64,000 bases of DNA, from positions 682,001-746,000 of the forward strand of contig CM039005.1 of NCBI GenBank assembly GCA_017499595.2, given 5' to 3'. Below, one piece after another: positions 4,614 to 64,000 of this stretch. The stretch's first letter is position 1. Each line of letters opens with the position of its first letter. A program made the position numbers and the translations under genes. The notes beneath the pieces are model-generated. The model did no database searches. It worked only from the letters and a program-made list of their open reading frames with translations, and was not told the origin of the DNA. The DNA is from Psilocybe cubensis (taxonomy: Eukaryota).

Positions 4614-5823
4614 ATGCCTCTAAGCATCTCTGACATATCTTCAGACATCTCAGGCTCCCCACCGAGACTAGACCCAAGCACGCTCTCCCTCCTCGACTCA
4701 TTCTTCTCCGAAAAAGCAGAAGCAGACCGCAAGTTCCAAGAACTTGCAGCCGAGCGCGCCGCAGCCCAAGTCGCCGGCCTAGCACTAGAGGAGGACATCG
4801 AGTCCGACGAAACCAAGCCAATGGTCAGCGTCTCCGACTTCAAACTCGCATTCGGCGAAGATTGGCAGCTTAGCCAATTCTGGTAAGTCTCTTCCAGCGT
4901 TAATCTGTCAGACAACCATTTTGTTGTCCAGCGGAAACCCCCCATGGCCTACTCGGGAAAATGGGCTTCACAAAACTGGAGGCAGGAAGGAAAGGTCGTC
5001 CTATTCATCTTCTATGAGCCAATTTGCCGTGTGCTGGGGACGCCAACCTGATCAGGCCTGACGCTGGACTCCAGATTGGATAGTCATGGACCGCAGGATA
5101 AAATCCGGTATCGGACGACCCACAACCCACAGGCCCACCACCACCTACGTCTTTCAGTTTCATAACAAATCACTCAGGGCAAGCTTCCCGCCCATCCGAT
5201 CCAAACCTTCAAATCTAACCTCTTGCCTCTTTTTTTAAAAACCAGGTACTCGGAGTCATTCGCAACCAACCTCGCCTCGCGCCTACACGCTCTCTGCACG
5301 CCCAACACCCACATAGCCTTTCTCTGCTGCCCAACCGCCTTCGTCGCATTTGAGCACATGAAACCTCTCACAAACTCCAAGCTGCTCGAATACGACCAGC
5401 GCTTCGCGGTGCTCTCTCCCAAGAAATTTGTGCCATACGACATCGACGACGCAGACGTATTCCCGGAGGCCATGCGCGGAAAAGTAGACATCGCCGTCGT
5501 CGATCCGCCATTCTTGAACGAGGTACGCATGACTTTCCCAATTTCGCACTCTTACTTGCTTCGACTGTTTCTCACCAATTCCTACCTTATATCAGGTGAC
5601 GAACAAAAAAGTCGTTCAGACCCTCAAACAACTCCTCCATCAAAGGAGCAAACTCATAGTGCTTACGTCCGTCTCTGTAGAGGACGTCCTCGCGAAGCTG
5701 TACTCCGAACCGCCACTGGGCCCGCTGCGCCGTACAGCAATCGATCCTGAGCATGGCCGGCTCGCGAATGATTTCGCATGTTGGGGGTCATGGGACGGGG
5801 CCGAGAAATTTGGCAAGGACTGA
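4614..5823 (+). CDS. EFM5: eEF1A lysine methyltransferase (EFM5/N6AMT2 family), 3 exons (4614-4882, 5246-5522, 5596-5823)
   Basis: EDWQLSQFW|YS, IAFLCCPTAF, LLEYDQRF, VVDPPFLNE and H-GRLANDF are family motifs; GT-AG junctions keep the frame. Confidence 0.9.
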
Positions 5824-9528: not shown

Positions 9529-10175
9529 GAAACCTGTTTGTAAATGGGGAACAAATGGATTTCAAGCGGTGTTACCCCCTACGTTTGAATCCCGTGCAGC
9601 AAATGGAATGACCACCAAACCAATCCATACTGAATGGCCAAGCACCCCCAGTTGAACCTATCAGAACGAAATTTGAGTAAGTCGACTCAGTACAATGATA
9701 TCAAAGCCCATCAGCTTTCCGTTCTTGACCAAGAGTACGAGCGGTTCCTCCCGATTTTGTCTCTGCCAGGCAAAGATAGTCGGGAATATACCAGAACGCA
9801 CTACAAGGTCTGGGGTTTCAACGAGGGTCGCGATATTACACCGGAATCCCTCTCCAGAGTGTGAAAGTCTGCATCGTTTGGGGTGCATACAAAATGAGAG
9901 CAATGAAAAGTTGGTGAGACGTACCGATCCTGCATCCAACCTCACACCGCAGAGTCATCGATGTTCAACATTTTCTTGATTTTCATCTCTATCGCAAGGC
10001 TAAAACGATGTTGAAGGTCTGCCGTTGCATCTCGTCGGTATCCAAGCATGAGTTCCGTTGCAACAGGTGTTCTCTGAGTATCGGTATTATCCGAAGCCTT
10101 GTAACCTTATTTTCCCGCTGCGCAAGGCTGCGCATTACGGCTGAAATCGATTCCTACCACGTCGCACTTAGCTTA

Positions 10176-11816
10176 ATGACCGAACACCACCCTGTTCCTG
10201 GACAATCTCAAAACGATGCCTTACCATCGGAGGCGTACTGGAGTATCCAAGCCTGCAAAATGTCCAACGGGTCTTGCTGTTCCCTTTGTAGCCAATACCA
10301 GAACCTCGATGAGCAGGTTACATTGCCTCGGAAACGTCAACTGCGCACTGAAATCAACCGTCATCACGACCCCATATCCCGATTTCTTCCTTACGAATTG
10401 ATAAGCAAGATTTTCAAGTTCTACGTCGAGGATGACTTTCGAGACCTAGAGGAGCAGAAAGATTGGAGAAATTTCCGCATTACCAACTCGCCGCTAATCA
10501 TTGCATCCATATGCTCAACTTGGCGCAGCGTTGCAATGTCTTCCCCGCAGCTATGGACACACATCCAAATGATACTGCAGGAGTTCTGCCGCCCCCTGGA
10601 TAAACTAGATGTTCTAAACAGGTGGATATCGTTGTCTGGAAACCAGACCGTGTCGCTATTTGTGGTATGTGAAGCGCCTAAACTCATTCCAGACCGTCGG
10701 CGGACGCAATACAAACGCGTTATTGCTGGACTGAACGCCATTTCACATCGCTGGCGAATCCTGCGTCTGTCCTGTTCTCATGCCGCACTTTATCAAATGT
10801 TTTCTGGAAATGTGCAGGGTATGCCGAATCTTTGTGGTTTATCCATCGAGAACTCTATCGAGCCGGACTACGATGATCGCGTTGTATTCCGGACAGATAA
10901 TGGACACAAGCCGCGTCCCTGTGAGGTTCGCCTGATAAGGGTTCCACTTATCTGCCTCGATATAATCTGGAACCAAGTCACCAGAATTAATATATCACAA
11001 TCTGAGTTATCACTCAACGAATGGCGCGAGCTAATGCGTCAGGCCTCGCAATTGTTGGAGTGTGAATTGACTGACATTTTTTTTGCTCCGGTTCTATTGA
11101 ACTTGGACATGACCATGCCCAAGCACCCAAAAGTTGGCAATCATACGCTCAGAAAAGTCAAAATCGGACAGTGTTCTGGAGACCTAGAATATTTTTTCAC
11201 AAAGTTCTCTGCCCCCAATCTCACACAGCTCCTGCTTGAAAAAGCAGGCTCCGTCAAAAACTGGAACTCGATTCGGACTGTTGTCGAGGCTTCTGGTCCT
11301 CAGCTAACGACACTCGGAATTATCATTCATGCAGACGGATGGGATTACGTTTCACTGCTCTCGTTATTGTCTAACACGCCGGTCCTCGAAGATTTACGGA
11401 TTAATGCTCAAATACGATATGATCCAGTCCAGCTTTTCCACATAATAGCCAAGTCTTCGACGCTCGACGTGGACATCCGTCGACCACAAATCCTTCCTGT
11501 GCTACGATCCTTTAGGTATCAAGGCTATAAAACATGGGACGGTTCATTCTGGGAGTTTCTTCCCTATTTTATCAACAGATCAGATCCTGAGAACCCTTGT
11601 TCAAAATCTTGCCCTCTTGACAGTCTAGAGCTCACAACCTGGGATGACGACTACAGGAGCAAGAAAGAAAACGTCCTAGCATCAATATGTCCTAGCAGGG
11701 AAGTCGTTCATCGTATTTCGTTACTGTCGTCTTCAGGGACAACGATTCGTCTTATCCACAATGATATTCACATATTGGCTGCCTCAATACGACATCACTG
11801 TCCTGTTATGGCCTAG
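10176..11816 (+). CDS. F-box-like protein with LRR-like C-terminus (copy A), intronless
   Basis: INRHHDPISRFLPYELISKIF...SPLIIASICSTWRSVAMSSPQLWTHI. The ORF is open from 10008, but the ATG at 10176 is the first one shared in frame with the duplicate copy within this window. Confidence 0.8.
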   Translation: MTEHHPVPGQSQNDALPSEAYWSIQACKMSNGSCCSLCSQYQNLDEQVTLPRKRQLRTEINRHHDPISRFLPYELISKIFKFYVEDDFRDLEEQKDWRNFRITNSPLIIASICSTWRSVAMSSPQLWTHIQMILQEFCRPLDKLDVLNRWISLSGNQTVSLFVVCEAPKLIPDRRRTQYKRVIAGLNAISHRWRILRLSCSHAALYQMFSGNVQGMPNLCGLSIENSIEPDYDDRVVFRTDNGHKPRPCEVRLIRVPLICLDIIWNQVTRINISQSELSLNEWRELMRQASQLLECELTDIFFAPVLLNLDMTMPKHPKVGNHTLRKVKIGQCSGDLEYFFTKFSAPNLTQLLLEKAGSVKNWNSIRTVVEASGPQLTTLGIIIHADGWDYVSLLSLLSNTPVLEDLRINAQIRYDPVQLFHIIAKSSTLDVDIRRPQILPVLRSFRYQGYKTWDGSFWEFLPYFINRSDPENPCSKSCPLDSLELTTWDDDYRSKKENVLASICPSREVVHRISLLSSSGTTIRLIHNDIHILAASIRHHCPVMA

Positions 11817-11998
11817 TCATAGTAAAAGAAAGGTTATGAAGCAAAATGGGGAGCGCACTGAGCACTCCAATTCTGCAAATTGTAAACATGATCAATTGAT
11901 CTTTAGACCAGAATGTATAGGATATATCTGAAAAATGAACCGGCATTGATCAAACCCTGTAATTTTTACTTTCACCTCTTTAGCTTCTGGCCAAGAAC

Positions 11999-12073
11999 TC
12001 TACACATCTGTGTAGGCCTTCCCCTCCGGTCTGCGCTGACGGTTTGGCCCCCGTCGGCGGTCCTGGATGCTCA
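11999..12073 (+). pseudogene. Relic single module of the Cys-rich peptide family (mirror copy near 62000-62076, minus strand)
   Basis: Translates as STHLCRPSPPVCADGLAPVGGPGCS, matching the family motif CxxxCxxxPPxCPxGLAPVGGPGCW; no signal peptide or continuation. Confidence 0.6.
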
Positions 12074-12789
12074 GTTCCGATTGAAGTTTGGTCAAGGGAA
12101 GGGAATGATGCATCATTGTCGATGGTGACCCTGCTGAGAAGGTTGATACATTGTGTAAAGGCAAGTGGTGTTCTGGAAGGACAGAGAACAACTACTTTCG
12201 ATTTGCGGCGACGAATTGGCTCCTAGCTTCTGGAAGCTGCAAGAAGAAATTTTTGGCAGTGTGTAATGAGTCAACGAGCTTGGGTGCCCTCGTGTAAGTC
12301 ATGGATTTCGGCTCGGCTCCAGGAGCGACTCCGACTTTGCTTCCAACGTGTCTGGCGAGCGGTAGGTTATAACTACTGTACATTGAAGGTTCATTTTCGT
12401 TGAAACGAATTTGATAGAATATCTTACCGAGACAGGGATAATCGGAATGATGGACGTTGTTGAAACGAAATGCTTTGGGCATAGGACTACATAGAACGAC
12501 CAAAATGCAGCGGAGGTTGAGAACTTTGATCCTGAGTAAACGAACTTTTGCTTTACCAGTTGCTAACGTCAAAGGCAAAGGCAAAGGTCGATAGCTAGTT
12601 TAAATTAGAGCGTCTTTGTACCTCTCTAAGTTCACCAATCAGATTTCCGTATGGATTCTATTGGTGGGCCAACGTCATTTTTTACAACTTGCGGCGTTGC
12701 AGCATATAATAGCCGCACTGAATGGGAGGAATCGATTAGATCTTAAGCTCAAAGGAGTTGCATGGTAGACCACACAGCATAAAAGGCTG

Positions 12790-13074
12790 ATTGCCGCCTC
12801 GATTCTTTTATTTGTCTCTACTACAGCAGCGACAGACGACAAACTCCCCTGTTCACGCGAGTGTAACTTGGCCGCGCCAACCTGTCCCGCAGGTTCAGCT
12901 CCCATTGGTGGACCTGGATGCTGGGGAAATGTAAACTGCTGCGAAGTTCCAGACCCTGAACGCATAATGGCCTGTACATTGGCATGCTTCCCATCTCCTC
13001 CACGATGTGGAGGGAATACGTTTGCCTTTGCACCTACCGTTGGTGGTTGCTGGAACTGTTGCTCGTTCGTTTGA
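12790..13074 (+). pseudogene. Cys-rich secreted peptide copy lacking transcription start region, 5'-UTR and start codon
   Basis: IAASILLFVSTTAATDDKLPCSRECNLAAPTC...CWNCCSFV* is fused directly to the TATA-like CATAAAAGGCTG; the segment present at 61151-61285 in the intact paralogue is deleted. Confidence 0.8.
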
Positions 13075-13305
13075 GACTTCTGAGTACGAAGAAATAACAA
13101 ACTGCAATAATTTGGCATCAGAGGAGAACTCTTTAAATTCGCAATATTATCCTAAACATACTCATCTACCTTGCAAAAATTCAAAACTGTAATCTGAAGT
13201 TGAATTGTTCAATGAACAGGTATGTGCAGGTTTTCCGCCTGTTCATACAGTAGCCTATAATATGTGGTACTTAACAGCGCGAGAGAAATGACATTATCTG
13301 CGAAT

Positions 13306-14210: not shown

Positions 14211-15253
14211 TCATAGTAAAAGAAAGATTATGAAGTAAAATGGGTAGCGCACCGAGCACACCAATTCTGCGATTCATAAACACGAAAAGTCTGATCTTTA
14301 GACCAGAATATATAGCAGTGGTCTGGAGAAGTGGAAAATGTGAAGCTTAGCGGCAGTTCTAATTGCTATATGAGAAACCAGACGATTTTGAACCCATATT
14401 TCATCGACGTCGGACTCAAATGGTCACCGATATGAAGCTAAATTTATCATGAGTGAGGCCTAGTGAGGCATGGATATGCCGACACCGTTGACGTTTGGTC
14501 CTCTGTATATGGATGTCGCGCCGTTGGCAGTGTTGACCGTTTTGAGAAGGTTGACGCAACATGTAAAGGCAAGAGGTGTTCTGGAAGGACAGCGAACCAC
14601 CATCACTGTCGATCTGAGGCGGAGAAGTCGCCTCCTATTACGTCTGGAAGCCGCAGCAAGGAAAATATAAGGTAACGAGCTTAGGTGCCGTAGTTTACGG
14701 CTTGGTTCTAGGAGGGGCTCACTGTATGCTTCCAAGGCGCCTGGCGAGCGGTAATCTATAGCTGCTGTAAATTGAGGATTCGTTTGGCGTTGAAGACAAA
14801 CGATGTGATGGAATACCTTGCGAGACAACATTCGAAATGATGAACGTTGTTGGAACGAAGCATTTTTGGCACAGAATTGCATAGAACGACCGAAATGTAG
14901 AGATTGAGAATTCTGACCCGTAAGAGCCCCTAAGCAAAGAAATTTCGGCATTCTGAGTCGCTAACCTCGAAGGAGAAGACAAAAGTCGAAGGTTAGATTC
15001 GATTAGGAACCGAATAGAGCGTCGTTTTACCTGTTCAAGTTCACGGAACTACATGATAGGGCATACCACACGCTATAAAAGGCTGGAGGAACACTACTTC
15101 ATTCCCCAGTCTTGACCACAAGTACCCACCGGTGCGTACACATCCACTTTTTAACTTGTTTTAGTGGGCCACCGCGGAGCGTGGCATGACGAGTCTTTAC
15201 GATTCAGCGTCACGCTTTGTAATAATATAATATATATATAATATAATATAAAT

Positions 15254-16227
15254 ATGTCCAACTTTGACGTGGATATCGGTGCAATGGACGAAGTGATATT
15301 CAGACTCCAAGGCATAGTTAGCGACAAGATGCTACCACCAATGGCAAAGCCTGCTTCGTACGTCCACTCCATTGAGGTGAATTAATTACAAATGAGGACT
15401 GTTACAGCCGCGACAGAACGGTCAAGCAACAACCATATTTACGTACCGCCATTGCTATCACGGGACTCGGAGACATTGTGTTCAATAAGGTGATGGAAAA
15501 GCTAGAAGAAGTTTTCCTCCGTTTTGCAAACAATTTTCCCGCGGACAGCGTCAGCGGCTATGACCCAGTTCTTCACAAAGACACGGGTTTCAATGTTTTC
15601 CATGCGCATAGCCAATATTTCACGAAGGTATCCGCATATCAAGACAAATCTGACAACATAGGTTTTCATCCCCTGGTCGACCCTGATAACGTATTGGCGT
15701 CCATGGTAGGGGACAGTTTCATCCACGCAATTGATAACAAGGTACAGTTTCTTCGTCGGGAGATACTTCCTGACGGAACAGCCAGGTATGTTTAGAAAAT
15801 ACCAACAACACATCACAACCAAACTAATTCATGTTGCAACAGATATTATTCTTATAATCCTGCCTCCATACGAATTGGAGACATTGTCGAGATCAGTGTT
15901 GCCTTTGTCGCATTTCCTGCCCAAGGAAACAAGTACAAATTTGTTGTCGCTCTTCGCGGAATACTTGTCTTGGACCAGGAGGCAAGAGAGGTAAGCAATG
16001 TTACATTGAACAGTCTCATAGCCATTCATAACTTCCAACAGAAAGCTGATATTCTTAGAATGCGGTCGCGCTATACTCCAGCAAAAAGACAGGTTGCTGT
16101 TTTGTGTAGGACAAAGAGGCAGCTGTACAAAGGTCAGATTGACATTGAAGACACGCAACAGAGGATGGCACGTATGCGCTTAAATGAGGACACAGTCCAC
16201 AATAGCAATACTATGTCCCAAGATTAA
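15254..16227 (+). CDS. Multi-exon hypothetical cargo protein of the Helitron-like element
   Basis: MSNFDVDIGAMDEVIFRLQGIVSDKMLPP exon, ORF 15478-15795, YNPASIRIGDIVEISVAF...LRGILVLD exon and final exon to 16227, separated by GT-AG introns. Confidence 0.6.
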
Positions 16228-16364
16228 TACATATGTACATAGAAAGACAAGGATATCATAAATGTGCTGAACGAACAATCAATCCATTTGCGTGAACATT
16301 GTAAATAACAAGGAATAATTTGTCAAGTCATTTTCATGACAGAAATTATCTGAAGGTGTTAGTT

Positions 16365-16555
16365 GGCACCCCATGGGAGAATCCTGCGTACACTGTACGC
16401 AGAATATTCCCACACTCGGCTGAATATCGGCGAGGAAGTCCGTGGGAGAATTCTGCGTATACTGTACGCAGAATATTCCCACACTCAGCTGAATATCGGG
16501 AGAGGTTGACCGTGGGAATATTCTGCGTACACTGTACGCAGGATATTCCCACGCT
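16365..16555. repeat. Three ~70-bp tandem units, each with a ~41-bp palindrome; related palindromes at ~18313-18355 and ~18610-18650
   Basis: GTGGGAATATTCTGCGTACA-C-TGTACGCAGGATATTCCCAC and variants. Confidence 0.85.
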
Positions 16556-16633
16556 CATCCGCAAGTCAAACTTACAAATTAAGACAAAAAGAATGAGGAC
16601 AAGAACACAAGTTTATTTCGAACAAAAATTTGA

Positions 16634-19605
16634 CTAAGGATGGAAGAAATTACAAATATCCATTCCACAAGAGGCTTTGTGGTTGAGGGCGATGCAACCA
16701 AAAAATATCTGCCTTTCTGGATAGCAAATACAAAACAGTTGCATGTACACGGTCATCTTTTTGCCTCCATTACAGGAATTAAATTGACAAATACTAAAAC
16801 TAAAGAGCACACACCTTATACCCCTTTCCCAGGATTTGATAGCTTTTTTGACACGCTTGTGTAATTGGTAAACATCTGCCGCTGTGTAGTGAAAATCTAA
16901 TGCGATACCGCTGATGCGACGGACACCAAAATGCAAACAATCAAATTCATTGAGCAACAATGCCCACGAATTGGCTTCAACAAAGGAAGTCTGATTTGCT
17001 TTGGGTAAAAGAGGCAAAGAATAAACCCAACAATGCCTGTCGCCAACCCGTCTAATCCCAGGAGAGAACAACTCTGGATCAGGATCGTAATCCAGCACAA
17101 CGAGAACATGACCACGAGATGAACTATACCCAACATTTACGTTGTCCCTGATAGACTGTATCCTGCTTTGGATATGGCGGTCCATTTTCAAAGTTTGCGA
17201 TGGAATGGAAAGAACAAATTTCAAGCCACGGGAATGATATTTTGCAAGAAATTTTTGCGCGCGCTTGAGGTCGGCAGAAGGTTGCAACAGAGAGACTTGA
17301 TGTCCAAAGGTAGCATTTGGATACAAGCTGTACACCTTCTCAAAGGTAACAAAATTCATGACGCCGGCTGCAGTAGAACAAAATTGAAGTTAACATTGTT
17401 TTGACACATGACATTGGGGACATACTGCTATGATACCCCAAAATGCACTCTACCACCGATTGACAAGTCGTAATCAGTTGGACAAAAGAACCTTGGCACC
17501 ATAGGTTAACGACCACTCCAGTGGTATTGTAATGTCGATGAAGAGGATGTTTCTGAAGGACGATTTTTTCCATTTTCAAAATTTTTTCCGCTGTGGTGTT
17601 GTCCGGATATTTGGGATGCGGCATGATAGTAAATCCAATGGACATCATCCAAGAAAGAACGGGAAGAGCATATCTATGCTTGACATACATGTCCATGTCA
17701 CCCGGAATCCATATATTAGCACGATTGATTACGAAACTTTATGTAAGTAAAGCGAGTTCTTTTATCCCCACAACCCACTGTACAAAAATATGTCCTTGCC
17801 AATTGTCCCCATCAGTAAATCATTGATGCCATCAAAATTGCGTGATTAATACCGGTTTTTTACTTAACTGGTATGCTTGACTTAATAATTGGTTACTATC
17901 ATAGAATTTCTGTTAGTTTTTGTTCCTACCAAGGGGATATGGAAATTAAAATACTAGATATTAGCTAGGTAGATAGGTTAGCTGCCATATGGTAGAAAAC
18001 AAAATTAGATACTATTACATTATGACTTTTTAATTGCAAGTTAAACATTTTGACGCAGATAATCATCGCTCATAACCAAAAATTTTATAATAATGACCTC
18101 ATTCAACTGATTTAAGGCCATTAATTAGTCACAATCAATTACATACCAACTGTTTTGCATGCTTTATACACCTCTAACAGCAAGTAGAGGTAAATAGAAT
18201 GCTTTATTGTTATCAAAAAAAATTTAGCATGAATGACTAGCAGACTGTGGTGGCATAGAATAAAGAATAATAAACATTATGTATCTAGCTATTATCTTTA
18301 ATGCCACTTCAAATAACTTGTCATATTAAACTTGTTGTGCTGTTCATACTGGCCATGAATTAATAAGCAGACTGTGGGAATAACTTGCATATAGTGTATG
18401 CAAGTTATTCTCACGGTTGCCGCACTTTGCATTGAGCAACTTGAACTTCTCTGGTAATTCCTGATATATTACTGAGATGCATTGCATATACTTTAGGTAA
18501 AATACAAGTATTTTTGGCAATAATAATTATTTTCAGTCCTAGTTTAGATGATCTTATTATATTTTACTTGCTGTGGTGTTTGTACTGGCCGTGAATTAAT
18601 AAGCAGGTCGTGGGAATATCCTGCGCACACTGTACGCAGGATATTCCCACGGTCACTACACTCAATTTGCATTGAGCACTGGCCACTTTGGTCAAGAGAT
18701 GGTCATTTTGAATAATGTTTTCCATGCATTGAATGTATTTTGGGGAAGAAATAATGCACTAACACTTGCAAATTATGCTTGAAATATGTTTCCACACAGC
18801 CAATTGTGTTCACAGCAACATCAAACTATGCCAAAAAGAAATATGCGCACCAAACAAATGTTTTTGCACACAATATTGTTTCACTCTTGATGTACTTTTC
18901 AAAAATAAGAAAATTATATTTATGGGAAATATGTCCCCACTTGGGCAGCCATACACATGAGCATTCTTCCATCAGTTTTCCATATGGGATTCTCCCAGCA
19001 GATCTGGAATTCTTCAATATTTAGCAGGTATGAAAATTATAATAGACAAGTTCTTCCTTACAATTAGGCCTTATAACCTGTGCAGCTATTTTTTGTGTCT
19101 GACACAACTAAGCTTGTAGTAGACCTAAGTCATAGTAATTAATCATAACCTTGCCCAGTATCTGGCTGTGCATTCAGAACATATTAATATATATTAACTA
19201 TGTTATATAAATCTAGATTAAAAAATATTTTATACAATTGTGAGATGTAAAGTCTTGTCATGCCACGCTTTGCGTTGGACCACTAAAACAAGTAAAATGC
19301 AAAATGGTGGAACCTGAAATAACCAGGCCAGTCTTGAACTGGAGAAGACGAAACAGCAAATGTTTATTGGGTTTGAAGATAGGAGCAAATAAATTTTTGG
19401 GACAGAAGGCGCGGCGCATATAGCCCGAAATGCGGTCGTTTAGCTCCTTGCAAGTCCAAGAGAAACGGTAGAGGGTTTTCAGATCCATCTGATCCATGTA
19501 CACATCGTCCATGGGAGGCGGAAAGACTCTAAAAAATAAGTAATAACCAAATGAGATAAAACAGTGAACATACTGTTGGAAACGGGGGGATAACGCGGAA
19601 GCCAT
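16634..19605 (-). pseudogene. Hypothetical cargo gene split by the nested element (ISGS...DMDMY motif protein)
   Basis: ...LLQFKTGLVISGSTILHF (ORF 19258-19605) joins INRANIWIPGDMDMYV... (into ORF 17340-17696) when 17729-19292 is removed; further exons lie in ORF 16634-17359. The 3' end is approximate. Confidence 0.65.
17729..19292 (+). mobile_element. Nested AT-rich non-autonomous element of the same Helitron-like family, in the opposite orientation
   Basis: 5' end TTACGAAACTTTATGTAAGTAAAGCGAGTTCTTTTATCCCCACAACCCA matches the reverse complement of 20227-20276. 3' end GTAAAGTCTTGTCATGCCACGC...CCACTAAAACAAG matches the reverse complement of 15155-15200. Inserted between A and T with no TSD. 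Confidence 0.8.
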
Positions 19606-20324
19606 GGGTAAAACAGTATGGAGAAAAGTGCATTGTCTATACTACGTCAATAAATATATTAACCGTAAGCCGATAGACGCCCGACGTAGGGGAAGAACAA
19701 ATTGGTATGCGTGAGAAACGATCATGAATCAGAAAATCAAATTCAAATAGTACAGAACGCCCAAAACCCAAGAACGCGTAATTATTTCTATTTGAACTCT
19801 GATTGATGAAGCTACCGATATCAAGGAACGTGTGTGCCTGCACAGTTCTATTTCCAACCTTTCAGACCCATAGTTCAAAGAGTGCATTTGTTCCATCTCT
19901 AAGTATTAGTACAATATATAAGCACGTTGGCTAGACGGTTCCACATGGTTTTAAAAATTAAACAACAACGCAAAAAAGTGAATTGAGTAGGACTATTGTT
20001 GTTGGGTATAATTAATTTTATGGAAATGCACATTCACATTGCGATCAAAACAAATCAAAAACAACCTTTAAAGTAACCAATGGTAAAAAGAAGTCGTAGA
20101 ATGAATTGGAAAGGGGTTGCTTAGGGGGTCCGGTGACCGCTTAAGGAAAATACCGATAGCGGTAACGACATTGATCGCATCAATAATATTTTGATGGGGA
20201 CAATTGGCGAGGACATTTTTGCTCGCTGGGTTGTGGGGATAAAAGAACTCATCTTTACTTACGTAAAGACTCGTAACTGACCGTTCTGGTGACGATGCTT
20301 CTGACAGATTTGTACGAAGAAAAC

Positions 20325-20624
20325 ATGAAATACTCAGCTATCGTCGCCTCAATTCTTGTATTCGTCTCTGCTACAGCAGCGACAGAAGAAAAACTCCCTT
20401 GTTCACGCGAGTGCAACCTCCGCCCGCCAACTTGTCCCACAGGTTTGGCTCCCGTTGGTGGACCTGGATGCTGGGGAAATGTGAAATGCTGCGACGTTCC
20501 CGATCCCAAGCGCCTAATGATCTGCACGAAGGCATGTTTCCCATCGCCCCCGCAATGTGGAGGGGATTCGTTTGCCTTCGCACCTAGCGAAGGAGGTTGC
20601 TGGAACTGTTGCTCGTACTTGTAA
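20325..20624 (+). CDS. Small secreted cysteine-rich protein (99 aa, 12 Cys, two tandem 6-Cys modules)
   Basis: Signal-peptide-like MKYSAIVASILVFVSATAA, then CSREC..C..CWGNVKCC and CTKAC..C..CWNCC; paralogues at 54027 and 60866. Confidence 0.9.
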   Translation: MKYSAIVASILVFVSATAATEEKLPCSRECNLRPPTCPTGLAPVGGPGCWGNVKCCDVPDPKRLMICTKACFPSPPQCGGDSFAFAPSEGGCWNCCSYL

Positions 20625-22227: not shown

Positions 22228-23282
22228 AGCTTGTTACTTGATGGTTGTGGAATGTGGGCAAGAGTTGGAACTTGGTTATAATACGGATGTCTACGGTGTG
22301 TTCGGGGGATCCGGCCTATCGACTGGGTAGTAAAGCAGGTATAATGTACCTTACATCCCAATGAAACTTATACCCTGCATTCCCGCAAATAAAGTACCCT
22401 ACATTCCGATGTCTATAATGGGTTATTGGAAGGAAAAATTGTTCTCGGAAGCGCCATTATCTGGGTTAACGGAAATTTTTTCCACTGGCATCATATCAAT
22501 TGAGGCATGAGCATCATTCTCACTCATGTGTTGGAGAGCTTTCTGTTAATGTGCTCATAGAAATTGTGGTGTACGCCTCGATTTTCAGTAGAGTGTAAAG
22601 GTTTGCGGTTGGATTCACTTTAGGATGCCGAACGAAACTTTGGCCCAAGCATCATTTTCATGAACGCGTCAAAGTCTGCGCTAACGATCACTTTGCACGG
22701 GTGACACAAATTGTGGCCTGGAGCTTCATTTTGTCCTAACATGTCAATCTCTCGGTCAAATTTGATTTATTATGCAGATAGAAACTTTGGTGTGAGCATA
22801 TCAAAATTTGGCCAGAGCATTATTTTCATTCATATGTCAAAGTCTGCGATAACACCCATTTTGCAACAAGCGTCACAGAGATTGCAGCTGGAGCATCATT
22901 TTTTCTAGTAACACCTCAAATCTTTCGGTGCAACCCCTTTACTATCCACCCTAAATATTGGTCTGAGCACCATTCATCCTTCAAATACTCAATTTCGCTC
23001 TCAGAATCACTTTCAAACATCTTGGTCTAAGCGTCCGTCATACAGCGGAGGTGGTATCCACATTCAACTTTAGGGTTACGCACAGACCTCAAATTGTTGA
23101 GGACGTCTTTCACTCATTCGGAATCACACATGGTATTATCCATTAACCACAGAACCAGCGAGCAGTTAGAATCCTGCAGAATGTACAAATGCATATTTAA
23201 TACACAGTGATTCAAAATGATTCTTTTGGCACCAATTCTTGAGTTGCCATGATTTGATGCACGGGGTGACGGGCCACATACG

Positions 23283-24016
23283 GGCCACCTTTTGATTGCC
23301 CCGCGAGAAATGGTGCACAGGCCACCTTTTGATTGCCCCGCAAGAAATGGTGCACAGGCCACCTTTTGATTGCCCCGCGAGAAATGGTGCACAGGCCACC
23401 TTTTGATTGCCCCGCGAGAAATGGTGCACAGGCCACCTTTTGATTGCCCCGCGAGAAATGGTGCACAGGCCACCTTTTGATTGCCCCGCAAGAAATGGTG
23501 CACAGGCCACCTTTTGATTGCCCCGCGAGAAATGGTGCACAGGCCACCTTTTGATTGCCCCGCGAGAAATGGTGCACAGGCCACCTTTTGATTGCCCCGC
23601 AAGAAATGGTGCACAGGCCACCTTTTGATTGCCCCGCGAGAAATGGTGCACAGGCCACCTTTTGATTGCCCCGCGAGAAATGGTGCACAGGCCACCTTTT
23701 GATTGCCCCGCAAGAAATGGTGCACAGGCCACCTTTTGATTGCCCCGCGAGAAATGGTGCACAGGCCACCTTTTGATTGCCCCGCGAGAAATGGTGCACA
23801 GGCCACCTTTTGATTGCCCCGCGAGAAATGGTGCACAGGCCACCTTTTGATTGCCCCGCAAGAAATGGTGCACAGGCCACCTTTTGATTGCCCCGCGAGA
23901 AATGGTGCACAGGCCACCTTTTGATTGCCCCGCGAGAAATGGTGCACAGGCCACCTTTTGATTGCCCCGCGAGAAATGGTGCACAGGCCACCTTTTGATT
24001 GCCCCGCGAGAAATGG
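23283..24016. repeat. Minisatellite, ~20 x 37 bp
   Basis: Unit GGCCACCTTTTGATTGCCCCGC(G/A)AGAAATGGTGCACA; A variant in units 2, 6, 9, 12 and 16; no spacers. Confidence 0.97.
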
Positions 24017-24238
24017 CGTACCGGCCATATATTAACCATGTTCCAGAACTGAATCCTCTGCGTCAATTTTTATACTAGCATAAATATAATGCATGTTGAC
24101 CAAAATTCGGCAGCCACACATATTTGTTCTCTCCCCGGATATCCTGTCAAAAATACTCTAAACCATGCATTTGACACATCTGCGGTTTCTGTGGTTGGAG
24201 ACAAACAATGTTGATTTAAATTTTTAACTACAGGCTAA

Positions 24239-27200
24239 CTAATGACCTTGCTTTTTTTCTAACTTTTGAATCTGCTGCCTGTTCCAAATCGAAAAGAAAA
24301 CCCTCATGTACATCACTGCTCTGTCCTGTGACATATAGCTCACAGCCTTTCGAATCTTGGAAATCCCACTGTTTCCACATTCTGCAGCACTAGAATTTAG
24401 TCTGAGCAGATTTGGATTTTCTGCACAGTAAGATGAAAGAAAACAGGCTTCACCACATTTATGTTCACTTGAGTGAAATATGTCGATGGCGAAGAGTGTG
24501 TCCTTGAAGAAGTCTGGTTCCCGTAACATGCAATAAGGCTGTAAAGCACAAGCAAAATCGTATACCACGACTTTTGGAGCCTTTTTCCAGCGTGTGAATA
24601 TTGCCGAGAACACATCGTTTCTTCCCTCCGCCGCTCGGATACAGTGAAATCCATAGCAAATGCTATGGGTGCACCAAACACACATAATCCCGCCGGTTAG
24701 TCGCTTTTTTGAATAGGTGGAGTAGTATTTTCGGCATATGTCTTCGTCAATTTCTGCGCTTCCCAAGTCATATCCTGACTCGTATGGCAAATTTGGATAT
24801 TGTGGACGGTCACGAATGGCCGGCATGGCGTAGCAACATCCTGTCTATTTAAAATCTCGTTTGAAATTTCATTTAACATTATATGACAACTCACCTTGAG
24901 CCAATCATCCATAAATAAATTCTCTTGTAAAACATTGCTTACAACAGCAGGTCCATCGTGAACCTTTAATAGTGTGTAGACCACAGTAACCCGGACGTAT
25001 AGCCATTTACAGACCCCTAGAACCTGATTTGTGAGCGTCCCCATGGTAAGTTCATGCTTAATTAACAGATGGAGAGCCGGGATATATCGCAGCAAATGAA
25101 CATTGCTGAGATAAGGACGTCTGATGAATGTTCGAAGGTTGTCCAGGCAGGAAAATGCTATAAATTGCAGCACATTTTCATCCGAAGACAGCTATAATTA
25201 AAGTTGTTATAATGAGTCGTTTAATATATGGAATACCGAAATACCTGGATGAAAAATTTGGAATACACATCATGCGCATTCCTTTTACCCAAAACAGTAG
25301 CCATCCCAAAGTGGATATCGAAGAGTTCTCCAACGGAAGGGTCCAGGGCCATCAATTTCCGGACTAGCTCGGGAATTTGAGTCAAGCGCTCAACCATTCG
25401 GCGGTTTCGTTCATACTCGGGGCTTCCCTCCGGATGAGTGGCGTCAGAAATGGTGGTTAATTGTGGCCCCTGCAGAATATAACGAATTAAAAGGCGCAAG
25501 GAGCGGTTTGGAATGGCTTGCAGATTGGGTAACGGCCGGACATCTGGTCTAGAGATAGAATTCTCCCCTATTGTAGTCGGGGGACGTAGAGTTGGCATCA
25601 GGTTTTTGCGGCTAAATGACACCGTGACGCCGTCCCATATAGTTGAATCAGGGGTCGGGCCACAGGATGGGCATACCATGTCGGGTCCAAAGTCTATAAG
25701 TCGGGCGTAAGAGAACCAGCTCGATCGAAACAACTTCTCGTTTGCAAACGGAATAGGGGAGTTCCTTGCTTGGTATTGGCGAGAAACAGTCTGCACCCAG
25801 GAAATAAAAGGGGTTTCTGACGACGAAAATGCGCTGGTGTAATCATCAAGGAGCTCATGGGTGAACAAGCTCCGGTTATTGAAATTAAAAATCCCTTGTG
25901 AGCTACAATCTGGCCCAATACATCGATGGGTGCATTTACCGCATTTTTGCAACGTTATAACTGCTTTGAACGCCCGTGTAAGAGTATAAATGGTACACTC
26001 CTTTTCGATTGTAGGTTCAAGAGCTTTGAAACGCTCACGTGGGGTTGTACAACAGCAAGAATCATTCGTCGACAGGGAGATAATCGTTGGAGGAATGTCA
26101 AATGTCACTCTTGGCATTGATGGAGGATCGGATGCGACTCTTGACCAGCCCGGCGGTGGGAGAGGGCGATATGAAACCGATTCAGCAATACCTGCCATTG
26201 TACGCAGAGCCGTACCTATGAAGATAGGTTTGTAGTTAAGTACTCGAACCTTTCAATAGATAATCAAGCTTACCATTGTATTGTAATCCTGTGTCGCCAT
26301 CCTTGCCTACATTGTCGTCTTGAGCATCACAGTTGCCTGTCAAATATTGCTGCAATGTATGCCGCGCCGATACAATATGTGAGCACGAGGATGCCCCACT
26401 GTCCTTGTTGCATTTCCAAACTCCCGCTCCGGTGTCGTCTCCCTGATGTTCGACCACGGCACGGTTCTTGATTGTTGAAAATCGAGTAAATGATGGTGTT
26501 GAGAAGTAATTCATGTACTGTCCATCTTTTATACTCTCGTGCCTTGAAAATAAGAAAGTTGTCTGATCTGTATCTACCAGGATAGCATATGAACACGGTA
26601 TGTTGAATCCATATCAAACAATCTAAGTTCTCACTACCTTTTTCTACCTCAAAAGCCTGGTTTTCCGAACCTACACCAGCATTCTGATCAATGAAGCGTG
26701 AATGGAAACATGAACTTTGCCCATTGGCAGCCGGGCACAAACAAACAGAAGTGAAGATGCCGTCAATCTCCACTCGGAGTACATGGTACCACAGCCGCTA
26801 TTGATGTATGAGAGGGAAATTTAACTTTGCGAGAATCTGAAATGACTTACGGTTGATTCCCCCCTCAAAATATTCCACCCATTTACCACAAATAACCGAC
26901 TGGTCAGTTGAAACAGGCCGCATTCCTCTGCCAAAACAGCATCCAAGAAAAGCGAATAATTTTCATCAAAATTAGGCAGAAGTCGTGTATCTATGTCGTC
27001 ATCTGTAGCTTCAAGCTCCTGATTTGAGGTTTCCAAAACATTGGGCTCGGGAAAATCAGTGAAAGTTGCTGGTGTTGATTGTTGGCCTGGCGTGTGTTCT
27101 GTGTTTTGTGCCTTCCCTTGCCGGTCAGCAACCTTGGTCCGCTTTACTGGACCTGAAACCTTTCTCTTTTTGCGAATTGGAGTAGTAATAAGTTCGCAGT

Positions 27201-27285
27201 CTTGGGGTTTAACAGGTGCATACTGGATTGTGGAGGGAGATTCTGGTGGAAGTGCGTATACAATCGGAGGAGGTGAGTCATACAT
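24239..27285 (-). CDS. KDZ (Kyakuja-Dileera-Zisupton) transposase, HMGXB3-like/CxC4-type, multi-exon
   Basis: Cys clusters (CxC...CxH, CGKC...IGPD...GIFNFNN, CPSCG..P..IWDGV), then TGGIMCVWCTHSICYGFH..EGRNDVF, VVYDFAC, IDIFH..H and NSSAAECGN, typical of the KDZ catalytic core. Confidence 0.85.
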
Positions 27286-27684
27286 GTTACTTGGAAGAGA
27301 CAGTGAGTGCCGGCGGGTATAGCGTGTGCGACCTACAGCACACTTAAATTATGGCTGTGAGCGCAGTTTTGATATCCTTGTCCAGCACTTACAATGTTGC
27401 CTGTGAACCATTTTCATATGGTTATCCAGCCCCTAAGATGTTGCGTGTGAGCTATTTTATATGCTTGGCCAGCGCTTGAAAGTATGTTTGTGACCTCATT
27501 TTCACTTCCTGGTCAGAAAGACGATATCATCCGAAGTTTTTTTAGCAGATCAACAAATCCGGCAGAGTACAAGGTTAGACATGGGGCAGAAAATCCTTCC
27601 ATAAGATCATTTTGGCGTATTATTTAAGGTTGTTCCATTCCGAAATTCTACGGTGTGTTCCCCACTCTCCTTCCTTCTCATACA

Positions 27685-36000: not shown

Positions 36001-36614
36001 TTAGCTTTTATATAGAGTTGAAATTTGTAGTGAGGAAATTTATTGGCATTCGAAGTAAACTTGTACTGTATAGACCAAGTAGACGACAATAAGATACTGG
36101 CTTTTTGCCACATGCAAAATTTTATGTGTTGACGATAATGTGGTACACGCAACATTTATAATCTGTATTGTATATTATGCCATATGCAGGAGTTTAGCTG
36201 GACACTCAAATATTGTCTCATGCCACATTCTGTGGTTAACCAAGTTATATGGTGTATGCCACATTTTCGAGGTTAGGAGAGATTTCTGGCATATGCCTGA
36301 GTTTAGCCACACGACCGTTCTCTCTTCATTTCTGTATTTCATCTGAATTTGATGAAGTCCATCGGCAAATGCCAGCCGGTAACGCGGCATTTTGTTTCAC
36401 TATCCGGGACATTCGTACCGCCTCACCACCACGGTTCCAGGCCATTGACAGCCTACCGCGTCGCGCAATATGGAGAATTTGAGGACTCCTTCGACGAAGG
36501 ATACGATGCCGACGACGAAATGTAGGAATTAGCTTACCATGCATGGAGGGACACGTGAAATTGTTACCTGTAATAGTTGAAAAATCCAGTAATTGTTGGA
36601 CATATTCCGCTACG

Positions 36615-38135
36615 GGACACATTTCGTGTCTCTCACACAAATTCCGGTGTACGAAGAATTGTGACTCCAACACCAAATCCTGGCGCACGAAAGATTGTGA
36701 GTCCCTCACCAAATTCTCGCGCTCACCACATTTCGCGGCTCTCACACAAATTCCGGTGCACGAAACATTGTGAGTCCTTCACACACATTCTGGCGCTCAC
36801 CACATTTCACAGCTCTCACACTAACTCAGGTGCATCCCTCACACAAATTCTGGTGCTCACCACATTTCGAGTCCCTTGCACAAATTCTGGCACTCCGCTC
36901 TTTTCGAGTCCCTCATACAAATTCCGCTGCGTGACACATTTCGAGTCCCCTCACACAGACTCTGGAACTCCCCACATTTCACGTCCCTCACACAAATCCC
37001 GGTGCACGAAACATTGTGAGTCCTTCACACAAATTCTGGCACTCACCACATTTCAATTCCCTCACACAAACTCAGGGGCATCCCTCACAGCGTCCCCTCA
37101 CAAATTCCACTGCACAACACATTTCGTGTCTCTCACACATATTCTGGTGCACGAAACATTGTGAGTCCCTCACCAAATTCTCGCGCTCACCACATTTCGC
37201 GGCTCTCACACAAATTCCGGTGCACGAAACATTGTGAGTCCTTCACACACATTCTGGCGCTCACCACATTTCACAGCTCTCACACTAACTCAGGTGCATC
37301 CCTCACACAAATTCTGGCGCTCACCACATTTCGAGTCCCTCGCACAAATTCTGGCACTCCGCTCTTTTCGAGTCCCTCATACAAATTCCGCTGCGTGACA
37401 CATTTCGAGTCCCTCATACAGATTCTGGAACTCCCCACATTTCGCGTCCCTCACACAAATCCCGGTGCACGAAACATTGTGAGTCCTTCACACAAATTCT
37501 GGCACTCACCACATTTCAATTCCCTCACACAAACTCAGGGGCATCCCTCACAGCGTCCCCTCACAAATTCCACTGCACAACACATTTCGTGTCTCTCACA
37601 CATATTCTGGTGCACGAAACATTGTGAGTCCCTCACCAAATTCTCGCGCTCACCACATTTCGCGGCTCTCACACAAATTCCGGTGCACGAAACATTGTGA
37701 GTCCTTCACACACATTCTGGCGCTCACCACATTTCACAGCTCTCACACTAACTCAGGTGCATCCCTCACACAAATTCTGGCGCTCACCACATTTCGAGTC
37801 CCTCGCACAAATTCTGGCACTCCGCTCTTTTCGAGTCCCTCATACAAATTCCGCTGCGTGACACATTTCGAGTCCCTCATACAGATTCTGGAACTCCCCA
37901 CATTTCGCGTCCCTCACACAAATCCCGGTGCACAAAACATTGTGAGTCCTTCACACAAATTCTGGCACTCACCACATTTCGATTCCCTCACACAAACTCA
38001 GGGGCATCCCTCACAGCGTCCTCTCACAAATTCCACTGCGCGACACATTTCGTGTCTCTCACACATATTCTGGTGCACGAAACATTGTGAGTCCCTCACC
38101 AAATTCTCGAGCTCACCACAGTTCGAGTCCCTGAC
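36615..38135. repeat. Higher-order tandem repeat: ~3.2 x 463 bp built from diverged ~36-37-bp monomers
   Basis: Equivalent starts at 36697, 37161, 37624 and 38087; monomers such as TCACACAAATTCCGGTGCACGAAACATTGTGAGTCCT. Confidence 0.92.
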
Positions 38136-38534
38136 CTGACTTCGGGTGCACGTAACATCTAGGGTCGTCCTCAGCAATTTCGGCTGTGCCCAGAAATTTT
38201 AACCTTCCGAGACCATGGCAGTGTTGTCTTGCTTGATATCAAACTATGACAACATTTATTGAGCCCACATGTAATGAGGCCCATTCCATGCCATACAGCA
38301 GCCCGGGAGTGGATCAACAAGCTTATCATAGAATGTTTCAGCAGATTAAATTGGAAATGCGGTAGGTGCGGACATTTGAGTGATAAATTATGTTTGCCGT
38401 GAGCAAGATATTTAGGTCTTGATGACTGTTTTAGGAAGATGGAATGTACGGTTCATGGTTAGCAGGCATGTAGGGTCTACATCTATGAGGACTGTAAGGT
38501 ACATTATACCGTATTTCTATATGGCCGATTTGCG

Positions 38535-39000: not shown

Positions 39001-41247
39001 ACCCTTAATCAGATAATCTGCAACATGATGGATAAGAAAAGAACAACAGAAGTCGCTTACTTATCTTACTGCGCCATCTCTACATTTAACTTGGGATATT
39101 CCTCATACGCTCCCGGATCTCTGCATCTAGCTCGGTGGCCGAGGATGTTATAAAACGGGGACAGCAATTGACATACTTGGTACGCGTTTTGCTTTTCCCA
39201 GGAAACAAATTTATACAGAATGAGTTAACGTATGACTCAGTTCCAGCCATTGTCGGTGGAATCACGGACGAACCAGAATTCGGTCATCTACCAGTTGTGA
39301 CTCACAACAGGCTTTGCATACACACAAACACACGCACACGTGTTACTCACGCCGCCACTGAAATGAAGCAAATGATAATAGCAAGTGGTTTCTTCATTAA
39401 ATATCAATATGTGCATATAGATGTAACAGCCCGTTAAAAACTTGAAAGAGTGTTGCTTCCAATGCGCTCGATGCTCATTAACACTTAAGCTTAGGCGCCC
39501 AAATACCAAATAAAAGGAGTGACGTCATATCAAAAATATCTATCGCGTATAGCCAATCAGGCTGTAGAATACGTACCCTCGTGTAACTATCTTTAAATAA
39601 ATAAATGCCTCTCTTCTGTTTTTCCCTGGGAAGAAGCACTTGCAGGGGTCTAATCCCAAGCATATGAGGGCAGAGTGGTGAGAACCTCTCGCTAACCAAG
39701 GCAGCGTATCTGCTTCCTGGGCCCTGTATTGATATTAACAATGACAGTACATCAGGGTTTACCGGTTACCCACGGCCTTCAGAAACAATATTTTTCGGCT
39801 GTGTGTGTCTTTTACTCCAGCAGACTGCTTGCGCTATCTATCCTAAACGATGCAATTAAGTTACTTTGTACTAAATGCAACAAAATTGTGGAGAATATTA
39901 ATACTTTAATTTTGTGAGAGTTGTACAGTATATAGCCGGTCAGTGGCTAGTTGGTGAGTGGCGTAGGAAGTCTTGCGCTGTTCCCGAAAAACACCGAAGA
40001 CGCAACCCGCTATCAAAATGTCACATTGGAGGTGTTTGGCTTCAACTGGGTTAAAAACGCCTTGAGGCTCGAACAAATATTACTCCCATGGCATGGGAAT
40101 CATGGAATGGATCCGTGACTCATCGAAGAATCATCGATTGGACCAGAAACAGTGCTTTCGACAATCGATATGAGAATCTGGAAGACATAAATAAGTCCAC
40201 CAAACGTAGAGGATGCGCCATTCAACTCCCCTTTCAAATTTGCATTTTACATCATACCCTCGACGCTTCCCATCCAGCATGTCCAACACCGACCATCCCT
40301 TCTGGACGAATTTTCCCCCCACCGGTCCCCACTATGACCCGCATCCGAACGCAGATGTTGTACGACTTCATTCCTGCCCTTCTTCTGTTTAAACGTCGAG
40401 TTAATATCAAACATCTAGCGCCGAAACGATAACCTTGGGTTAAAGCCTCAAAAGCTCAATGTAAAAAATCTTGTTCTTCAATGTGTACTTTCCTGTACAC
40501 TGATCCATCTTAAATTCCAAACAGGAGAATATTCTTTTCTTTGTTGGCGGCACTGCGCACGTTGGTCTTCTGATCAACATCTTTGAGTCCGCAAGGAATG
40601 GGGTAAGTGGTTATTAATATGGCAGTTTGGATCTGTCCTCATGAATGTTGCAGTGTATTGTAATTTGGGGATAAGACTAGGCGAGAGTTAATGAGCCAGC
40701 AGTACACTTGCTTTGTTACCAGGTAAAGTTTTATTAACCTTGTTATGTTCCTATAATCTTGACATTATCAACCACTACTCTTCAAACTATTAGCCTACCT
40801 CTTTCTGCAACCGCACCTCAACTTGATTGAAGCAATACCACAAAGGAAATGCAATAGTGAAGATGCCCGTATTACATAGTGTTAATATCTGTATCCTTTG
40901 GTCTGTGATACCCCCCAGTTAATTGAATTCCAATATGTTGTTCTGTAAACTATGGCAGTTTACAAATGAGATTCACATTCCATATTTTATATCAGTTCAC
41001 AGTTTTGTTGCACTTGCTCCCTCTTACCTGAATCCTCCTGAGTAATTCCACCACATATCTTAGACTGATGGTCTACCTCCCACCAGCAGTGAGAGGGAGA
41101 TTACTGTACTGCCGCAGGATTGTCGTTTGCTTTGCCATCAGACGGTTACACGGACTGGCGGTCTTAACCGGGGAAATGTCACGCTCGTATTATTTGTCTA
41201 ATTTTACACGCGTACGTCAACACCAATCTTACTTGGTTCAACTATCA

Positions 41248-43902: not shown

Positions 43903-44116
43903 CACGGCTTGCGCTCGTGCATATTTTCCAGAAAAATATCTATCAGTAATTATGTTTCCTGTTCATTTTTGACATATTTGCCTGGAATATAGACTTCGGG
44001 GTTGCCTAATCAGGGAACCCCGAAGTCTATATACGTCAAAAATACGTCGAAAACGAACAGGAAACATAACTGCCAATACATATTTTGCTGGCAAATATGT
44101 ATGAGCGCCAGCGGTG
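43903..44116. mobile_element. 214-bp foldback MITE with 3-bp TSD (GTA)
   Basis: CAC...GTG ends; whole element is an imperfect palindrome with core TATAGACTTCGGGGTT/AACCCCGAAGTCTATA. GTA at 43900-43902 and 44117-44119. Absent from the paralogous site at ~38868. Confidence 0.8.
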
Positions 44117-52674: not shown

Positions 52675-52676
52675 GG

Positions 52677-61165: not shown

Positions 61166-62258
61166 GTTTTCTTTGTACAGATCTATCAACATCGTCATCA
61201 GAACGGTCATTAAAAAGTGACTAGTGAATGGGCACTCACTGGTGGATACTTGTGGTAGAGACTGGGGAATAATTTCGTGTTCCTCCAGCCTTTTATGCTG
61301 TGTGGTCTACCATGCAACTCCTTTGAGCTTAAGATCTAATGGATTCCTCCCATTCAGTGCGGCTATTATATGCTGCAACGCCGCAAGTTGTAAAAAATGA
61401 CGTTGGCCCACCAATAGAATCCATACGGAAATCTAATTGGTGAACTTAGAGAGGTACAAAGACGCTCTAATTTAAACTAGCTATCGACCTTTGCCTTTGC
61501 CTTTGACGTTAGCAACTGGTAAAGCAAAAGTTCGTTTACTCAGGATCAAAGTTCTCAACCTCCGCTGCATTTTGGTCGTTCTATGTAGTCCTATGCCCAA
61601 AGCATTTCGTTTCAACAACGTCCATCATTCCGATTATCCCTGTCTCGGTAAGATATTCTATCAAATTCGTTTCAACGAAAATGAATCTTCAATGTACAGT
61701 AGTTATAACCTACCGCTCGCCAGACACGTTGGAAGCAAAGTCGGAGTCGCTCCTGGAGCCGAGCCGAAATCCATGACTTACACGAGGGCACCCAAGCTCG
61801 TTGACTCATTACACACTGCCAAAAATTTCTTCTTGCAGCTTCCAGAAGCTAGGAGCCAATTCGTCGCCGCAAATCGAAAGTAGTTGTTCTCTGTCCTTCC
61901 AGAACACCACTTGCCTTTACACAATGTATCAACCTTCTCAGCAGGGTCACCATCGACAATGATGCATCATTCCCTTCCCTTGACCAAACTTCAATCGGAA
62001 CTGAGCATCCAGGACCGCCGACGGGGTCCAAACCGTCAGCGCAGACCGGAGGGGAAGGCCTACACAGATGTGTAGAGTTCTTGGCCAGAAGCTAAAGAGG
62101 TGAAAGTAAAAATTACAGGGTTTGATCAATGCCGGTTCATTTTTCAGATATATCCTATACATTCTGGTCTAAAGATCAATTGATCATGTTTACAATTTGC
62201 AGAATTGGAGTGCTCAGTGCGCTCCCCATTTTGCTTCATAACCTTTCTTTTACTATGA

Positions 62259-63899: not shown

Positions 63900-64000
63900 T
63901 AAGCTAAGTGCGACGTGGTAGGAATCGATTTCAGCCGTAATGCGCAGCGGGAAAATAAGGTTACAAGGCTTCGGATAATACCGATACTCAGAGAACACCT

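Follow-up and report, generated by a model that had tools for sequence, protein, structure and literature searches.

Helitron2 (HLE2) elements are rolling-circle transposons with asymmetric inverted repeats of 8-15 bp, the 5' copy lying 0-2 bp from the end and taking part in a hairpin and the 3' copy lying just upstream of a second hairpin; they begin with a T, usually insert at TT, make no target-site duplication and give rise to non-autonomous derivatives (Bao and Jurka 2013, PMC3627910; Li et al. 2024, HELIANO, PMC11417382). Their autonomous partners encode a RepHel of the HLE2 clade (DUF6570). Helitron1 (HLE1) elements are bounded by 5'-TC and CTRR-3' and have no inverted repeats. RPA and PF21473 are the single-stranded-DNA-binding domains recorded for HLEs (PMC11417382). 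Among fungal relatives, FoHeli1/2 and FoHeliNA of Fusarium oxysporum have hairpins at both ends, a repeat 30-50 bp inside the 3' end (38-51 bp in FoHeli1/2), a preference for TNAT^A in FoHeli1/2 and nested self-insertions, modelled in opposite orientation as well (Chellapan et al. 2016, PMC5148889), and HELPO1 of the agaric Pleurotus ostreatus carries genes of unknown function, some of which are neighbours of RepHel in other basidiomycetes (Castanera et al. 2014, PMC4289320). DINE-1/HINE elements are non-autonomous Helentrons that have 12-15-bp subterminal repeats and a 3' palindrome and stem by deletion from larger partners, of which some have an RPA gene (Thomas et al. 2014, PMC4067079). Helentrons are marked by an AP endonuclease in the transposase and by T-runs at both ends. 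Here we describe an element of 5.1 kb in 64,000 nucleotides of Psilocybe cubensis (GenBank assembly GCA_017499595.2, contig CM039005.1, positions 682,001 to 746,000; hereafter the window), a fungus with 16 HLE2 and 4 HLE1 entries in HELIANO Table S10 (PMC11417382). It is very probably a recently amplified non-autonomous Helitron2 composite, deletion-derived from a larger gene-rich element, and carries two genes, A and B, discussed below. Coordinates are collected in Table 1.

Read on the minus strand, the element starts with TTACG at 20276 and ends in AAAACAAG at 15155, with T as its first base and CAAG as its terminus. Its 13-bp repeat occurs in the window at its two terminal sites alone when up to two mismatches are allowed, and an inverted repeat of this length was reached by one of 3000 random pairs of 60-nt stretches. 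The 5' copy lies 2 bp from the end and is partly taken up in a hairpin, the 3' copy is followed by a further, weak hairpin, and no target duplication is seen, a single base being shared both at the site of an inner family member (see below) and across copies; these features are those of Helitron2. The TT...CAAG ends and the 13-bp repeat set it apart from Helitron1. The 3' repeat, 34 bp inside the end, is placed much as in FoHeli, which also has hairpins at both ends; HINEs, by comparison, have no coding capacity and T-runs at both ends, while the window element has genes and no 3' T-run, and HELPO1 differs in its canonical CT[A/G]G ends and A^T target. The initial annotation, made from the letters of the window, had proposed the boundaries 15155 and 20276, the two repeats with their offsets of 2 and 34 bp and ends other than TC...CTRR, and on all three points it proved accurate, the boundaries through the read evidence that follows. 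It had also named the GC hairpin at the 3' end, which is present at a strength considered later, and had passed over the stronger hairpin at the 5' end. Its statement that an empty paralogous site defines the ends holds in part: such a site exists near 61.2 kb (61190..61240, minus strand), but it is ~80% identical with small insertions and deletions at the junction, and it therefore fixes the ends to a few bases at best, so that the exact ends must come from reads.

Evidence at the level of copies was drawn from protein clusters and from public reads, with four of 19 public runs mapped to the window. In two raw genomic runs 18 and 12 reads skip exactly 5122 bases, and the same empty joint is present in one contig of run X19, so some strains or alleles lack the insertion. 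Among the piles of loose read ends listed, those at 15154 hold 343 and 307 reads in the two genomic runs and those at 20276 hold 233 and 313; agreement with the loose-end consensus is just 0.39-0.40, which means that the flanks vary from copy to copy. Median depth is ~700 within the element, 26 times that of the left flank (~27) in both runs, while division of the bases read by a genome size of 46.6 Mb gives 19-20 copies and the right flank of run X16, a side on which paralogues raise the depth, gives 14. The outer element is confirmed as a real mobile element present in ~19-26 copies. In X16, 587 of the 931 listed differences are C>T or G>A, the pattern expected of methylated repeats. Subfamilies exist as well, as seen from ~250 reads with other sequence before 18679 (18455-18679) and ~100 reads that skip 119 bp of gene B (17551-17671), and the read joints 15155/18914 and 20275/19504 show further ends of the element lying within other copies, which hints at additional self-insertions.

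These data bear directly on two other accounts of how the copies arose. That they stem from segmental duplication and not from transposition is hardly credible: there are indeed other large duplications in the window, for example between 10065-12789 and 61286-64000 at 99%, but the copies break off sharply at common boundaries beyond which the flanks differ, the empty allele is exact, and the gene pair is found at 14 loci on 10 contigs. We consider it very improbable, too, that a DDE enzyme moves the element by cut and paste, either as a PIF/Harbinger-like transposon with a TTA/TAA duplication or as a terminal-inverted-repeat element spanning 15155-19292 with 46-bp repeats. The outer element is indeed flanked by TTA at either end here, yet the 343 and 307 reads at the 3' end depart from the window after one shared base, and one base is likewise shared at the inner site. 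The combination of terminal inverted repeats and fixed target duplication that marks such transposons is not found. The 46-bp repeats have their own origin. The stretches 15150-15200 and 19247-19297 are 86% complementary over 51 nt, and this inverted repeat of 46-51 bp between 15155 and 19292 was rejected as a pair of terminal repeats since it consists of the 3' ends of two opposed copies and depth runs on past 19292 to 20276.

The second of those copies is an inner family member of 1564 bp, inserted into gene B in the orientation opposite to that of the outer element. Compared with the outer ends it is 79% identical over 140 bp at the 5' end and 87% identical over 46 bp at the 3' end, and a stem like the outer 3' hairpin is found at the corresponding place; no genes of its own were found in it. 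One repeat position is changed in both inner arms relative to the outer repeat, a single covarying pair. In the two genomic runs 36 and 37 reads, ~5% of the depth, join 17728 to 19293 by a skip of exactly 1564 bases with one shared base, and the inner copy parts what are codons 73 and 74 in the intact homologue P0035, with nothing added, the gene B frame of P0012 and P0035 passing uninterrupted across the site. The inner target, TGAT^A, fits the preference of FoHeli1/2 with an ambiguity of one T (PMC5148889), and nested self-insertion is common to both systems. No rise in depth is seen over the inner copy, indicating that it is now mostly a passenger. A stretch of 35 bp within it (18919-18953) has twice the depth and is flanked on either side by ~650 loose ends, the sequence being constant before and varied behind; we read this as the end of another high-copy repeat family lodged in the inner element. 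The palindromes of the inner copy (Table 1) are up to 94% identical to that at 16507-16553.

A six-frame scan of the element gave no Walker A and no full HUH motif, Pfam gave no match, and a Pif1-type helicase had no match to the window; with neither Rep nor helicase encoded the element is non-autonomous. The initial annotation was right on this point, and its reading of the element as a member of a gene-carrying non-autonomous Helitron2-type family is the best supported, given that the terminal features described in PMC3627910 are present and that copies share their boundaries; target duplications or different ends in further copies, which it had named as grounds for refutation, did not turn up in the reads, where boundaries are common and no duplication is seen. 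Its term 'non-canonical' is apt relative to Helitron1 but less so in general, HLE2 having been described already with P. cubensis entries listed (PMC11417382). It had also seen two convergent intron-containing genes, and both are indeed spliced and convergent, but it did not report the inner copy of 1564 bp by which gene B is cut.

Starting from the ends, copies, polymorphism, nesting, target T and lack of a transposase, all of which are observed, known Helitron biology would suggest the following course. RepHel supplied in trans by another copy would recognise the 5' end (20276) by its repeat and hairpin and nick there, one strand would be peeled off until the 3' repeat, hairpin and CAAG end signal a stop, and the displaced strand would probably be circularised and then joined to a target nicked beside a T. 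A small family member had earlier inserted into gene B in opposite orientation; with its stop signals on the other strand and its repeats decayed, the 5.1-kb composite would be copied whole, which accounts for the ~95% of reads that carry the inner copy. The gene A product may, rather likely, coat the displaced strand, by analogy with the role proposed for the RPA genes of plant and animal Helitrons. That another HUH enzyme of Replitron type or an unrecognised transposase, possibly B itself, moves the element seems quite improbable. No RepHel tied to the element ends has been found and the fold of B is unconfirmed, and the CAAG end resembles the ends of IS91. Against this, the ends match Helitron2, the amplified copies are those with a broken B, and B has no HUH motif. 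Replitrons, moreover, are defined by short direct terminal repeats and a helicase-less Rep, where the window element shares one base at its ends and shows no Rep motif, and the available text on Replitrons lists no fungi (PMC10288648).

Gene A has three GT-AG introns, and 267 of its 271 residues are identical to P0001; both genes are 98-100% identical to annotated P. cubensis proteins. The full-length protein P0013 (JR316_0004008) and most homologues carry 55 further N-terminal residues, and as just 99 bp of the element precede its start, gene A of the window is truncated. The main cluster has 18 members and the family 605 representatives at E<=0.001, and the 18 relatives looked up are all from agarics (Agrocybe, Pholiota, Galerina, Panaeolus, Coprinopsis, Coprinellus, Candolleomyces, Ephemerocybe and Tetrapyrgos). 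In order to obtain a structure, P0013 was modelled by AlphaFold on 103 sequences (pLDDT 88.7). The top Foldseek ranks of this model are CP312R of African swine fever virus (E 3.7e-6), T7 gp2.5 (2.5e-4) and the Enc34 SSB (a protein that binds single-stranded DNA), and 125 viral models are found at E<=0.001, with giant viruses dominating the best 50 of the 125. In VIA-align the model gives Z 10.6 with gp2.5 (root-mean-square deviation 4.6, 169 residues aligned, model residues 67-285), 9.5 with Enc34 SSB (4.0, 146 residues) and 8.3 with CP312R, as against 4.0 with RPA (4.6, 95 residues); the part aligned with gp2.5 is retained in the truncated form of 271 residues. The full-length product is thus predicted to have the extended OB fold of SSBs of the T7 gp2.5/giant-virus type, with PDB entries 1je5 (gp2.5), 5odk (Enc34) and 8hw5 (CP312R) as its best structural matches, at an identity of 9-12% and in a spliced fungal gene. 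By sequence the family stands apart: RPA and PF21473 match none of its 103 members, no Pfam family matches more than one of the 103, Pfam, NCBIfam and PHROGs give no significant match for the P. cubensis A or B proteins, a PDB profile search with gene A gives nothing significant, and gene A has no sequence match in phage genomes (tblastn), PHROGs or PDB. The Rfam search was blank and four viral-contig scans found nothing. One copy has been struck by a retroelement, the gene model of P0044 (JR316_0006589) joining an integrase zinc-finger piece of a retrotransposon to gene A.

Gene B survives in the window as the two parts on either side of the inner copy. In tblastn, residues 1-73 of P0035 map to 19512-19294 and residues 1-89 of P0012 to 19605-19294, and P0011 is 100% identical over a gene B query of 184 residues; intact versions are P0035, P0012 and P0036. 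Two motifs, ISGS...DxD and HSTxxMN, are common to the homologues; in the former, GS and the second D are invariant in all seven aligned rows, and it is degenerate in P0195 and P0196. An F-box scores above the Pfam cut-off in a gene B homologue at metagenome locus L001 (E 6e-5), and an Atlas feature score of 0.91 links gene B to a mostly viral cluster of which 34% is Gad2, a phage protein with a predicted nucleotidyltransferase domain (10.1101/2023.05.01.538930). The product of gene B is probably an F-box protein with a Pol-beta-type nucleotidyltransferase-like domain. In the 5.1-kb subfamily gene B is dead, and it is dispensable in cis.

A and B are a conserved agaric gene pair, one of them with a predicted SSB fold, and probably not arbitrary cargo. 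Sixteen B locus tags of P. cubensis, 15 from a cluster of 20 members together with P0194, were listed, and 14 of them adjoin an A tag, on 10 contigs; one of the other two is a second piece at one of the 14 loci and one has no listed A neighbour. Five gene models of Coprinopsis and Candolleomyces (P0050, P0061, P0082, P0195 and P0196) fuse A and B, implying that the two genes lie in tandem there, as against convergent in the window. At JR316_0004007, 4008 and 4011 an intact B, a full-length A and a B paralogue at 43% stand together, and this locus is a candidate for the larger parent element. Metagenomes were scanned twice; the first scan confirmed none of 153 candidates, possibly as an intron falls beside the motif used, and the second confirmed three of 599, among the matches listed (L001, L002 and L003). 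At L003 an open-ended open reading frame of 821 residues with a PIF1 domain (E 1.4e-23) is followed, 7.3 kb downstream, by a B homologue (31% over 153 columns), and we read this frame as the putative tail of a Helitron RepHel whose Rep part would lie beyond the fetched stretch; matches to the 13-bp repeat at L003 were rejected as chance, having two to three mismatches and no terminal context. No recognised helicase is present at L001. At L002 a gene A homologue is followed by a palindrome of 79 bp (4800-4878), echoing those that follow gene A in the window.

We must then ask whether the genes do anything for the element. It is possible, though we lean the other way, that a Helitron2-like element has carried A and B along as passive cargo with no role in transposition. 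The form that has multiplied has B broken (~95% of reads) and A without 55 N-terminal residues, intact A frames may merely reflect youth, and accessory genes are often fragmented and not essential according to HELIANO (PMC11417382). The linkage of A and B, however, recurs as fused models in Coprinopsis and Candolleomyces, an SSB fold suits transposition through single-stranded DNA, a long palindrome also follows the A homologue of L002, and intact copies could provide the proteins in trans.

Several observations weigh against the Helitron2 assignment and the reading of the two genes. The GC hairpin at the 3' end is, taken alone, at chance level (Table 1), and the 3' repeat lies 34 bp in, as against the ~20-30 bp described (PMC3627910). 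The insertion is at a single T and not at the usual TT of HLE2 (PMC11417382), though TT is a preference more than a strict rule: the outer target can be read as T^T, the inner one has a single T. At the outer empty joint five bases fit either side, which we attribute to local microhomology and not to a target duplication, as a single base beyond the element is shared across copies. No RepHel was found between the termini of the window element in the window and the three metagenome loci; those termini are absent from all three loci, a helicase is present at one of the three only, and its Rep part is off the L003 stretch. An end-to-end circle joint was not found among the 15 of 36 read joints listed. 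The SSB fold was predicted on P0013, not on the truncated protein of the window. Finally, the nucleotidyltransferase reading of B draws on the motif, the Atlas score and a sub-threshold Pfam match of nucleotidyltransferase type in one homologue (E 0.0084), its single-sequence model is poor (pLDDT 37), and PDB profile searches gave no significant match, so that this identity is a lead only.

The element itself is an ordinary Helitron2 derivative, and it is the gene pair that stands out; its single-T target, its CAAG end and its predicted gp2.5-type SSB gene distinguish it from described HLE2. If the fold holds, a large unannotated agaric family would be a virus-type SSB on rolling-circle transposons, unlike the RPA of plant and animal Helitrons, and relevant to a descent of Helitron accessory genes from viruses or plasmids, and the models suggest that mushroom Helitrons keep virus-type helper genes. 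No report of a gp2.5-type SSB or nucleotidyltransferase gene on fungal Helitrons was found in the literature searched, outside of which lay most subscription journals, Repbase and most supplements. Tentatively, and with more doubt than confidence, we propose that mushroom-forming fungi host a gene-rich Helitron2 clade whose core kit comprises an SSB of phage/giant-virus type in place of RPA and, as a relative of the phage anti-defence protein Gad2, an F-box nucleotidyltransferase, both of viral origin and unannotated, which would serve to protect single-stranded DNA and perhaps to counter host silencing; on this view the 5.1-kb family would be a reduced member that goes on spreading the SSB gene. 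Since the family is young and polymorphic and the fungus can be cultivated, circles, target choice and the role of the SSB are open to experiment.

At this site the insertion probably sits in the 5' leader of a host gene and puts gene A behind the host promoter, lying as it does between a TATA-like box at 15074 and the gene at 20325. One contig of run X19, tentatively taken as an RNA run, begins at 15102 and bridges the empty site by joining 15102-15151 to 20274-20591. The gene, parted from its promoter, encodes a secreted-type protein of 99 residues and is a candidate for a strain-specific difference in expression. Its product is one of a few related cysteine-rich proteins of secreted type in the window, none of which has a Pfam match (20325-20624, 12790-13263, ~60860-61170 and 54098-54321), of which the copy at 12.8 kb is without its start.

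Table 1. Positions of the element, its parts and the adjoining host gene in the window
Feature	Position	Strand	Remarks
Host TATA-like box and 5' region	15074..15154	+	TATA motif at 15074; cut off from its gene by the insertion
Outer element	15155..20276	-	5122 bp; 5' end 20276, 3' end 15155; each end uncertain by one shared T
GC-rich 3' hairpin	15168..15185	-	between repeat and CAAG end; z -1.15, 25/200 shuffles as good
3' asymmetric inverted repeat	15189..15201	-	13 bp exact, 34 bp inside 3' end
Gene A	15254..16227	+	271 residues; exons 15254-15357, 15408-15785, 15843-15990, 16042-16227; no internal stop
Three palindromes of ~40 bp	16374..16553		between 3' ends of genes A and B; z -4.7, -9.1, -10.4; 0/200 shuffles each
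Gene B, downstream part	16650..17728	-	three exons; P0035 residue 74 onward; placed by tblastn with P0035 and P0012
Inner family member	17729..19292	+	1564 bp; opposite to outer element; splits gene B
Inner 5' repeat	17731..17743	+	decayed; 9/13 positions match partner
Two related palindromes in inner copy	18371-18417, 18609-18651		z -12.0, -10.4
Inner 3' repeat	19246..19258	+	followed by hairpin-like stretch and CAAG end
Gene B, upstream part	19293..19605	-	F-box-like start and ISGS half of motif
5' hairpin	20252..20269	-	uses part of 5' repeat; z -2.64, 5/200 shuffles as good
5' asymmetric terminal inverted repeat	20262..20274	-	13 bp, 2 bp from end
Host gene	20325..20624	+	99-residue cysteine-rich protein, signal-peptide-like start; no Pfam match

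Elsewhere in the window, the duplication of 10065-12789 and 61286-64000 is inverted, 99.2% identical and includes a long F-box-like open reading frame. A 74-bp tandem array occupies 23280-24027 and a degenerate nested tandem array 36600-38181, and the open reading frames at 24239-27348 look like a putative Kyakuja-Dileera-Zisupton transposase. A putative kinase-like gene region at 41156-48391 is present in three copies of alternating orientation at 85-93%, and long self-complementary or inverted stretches lie at 51921-53404 and 43903-44116.

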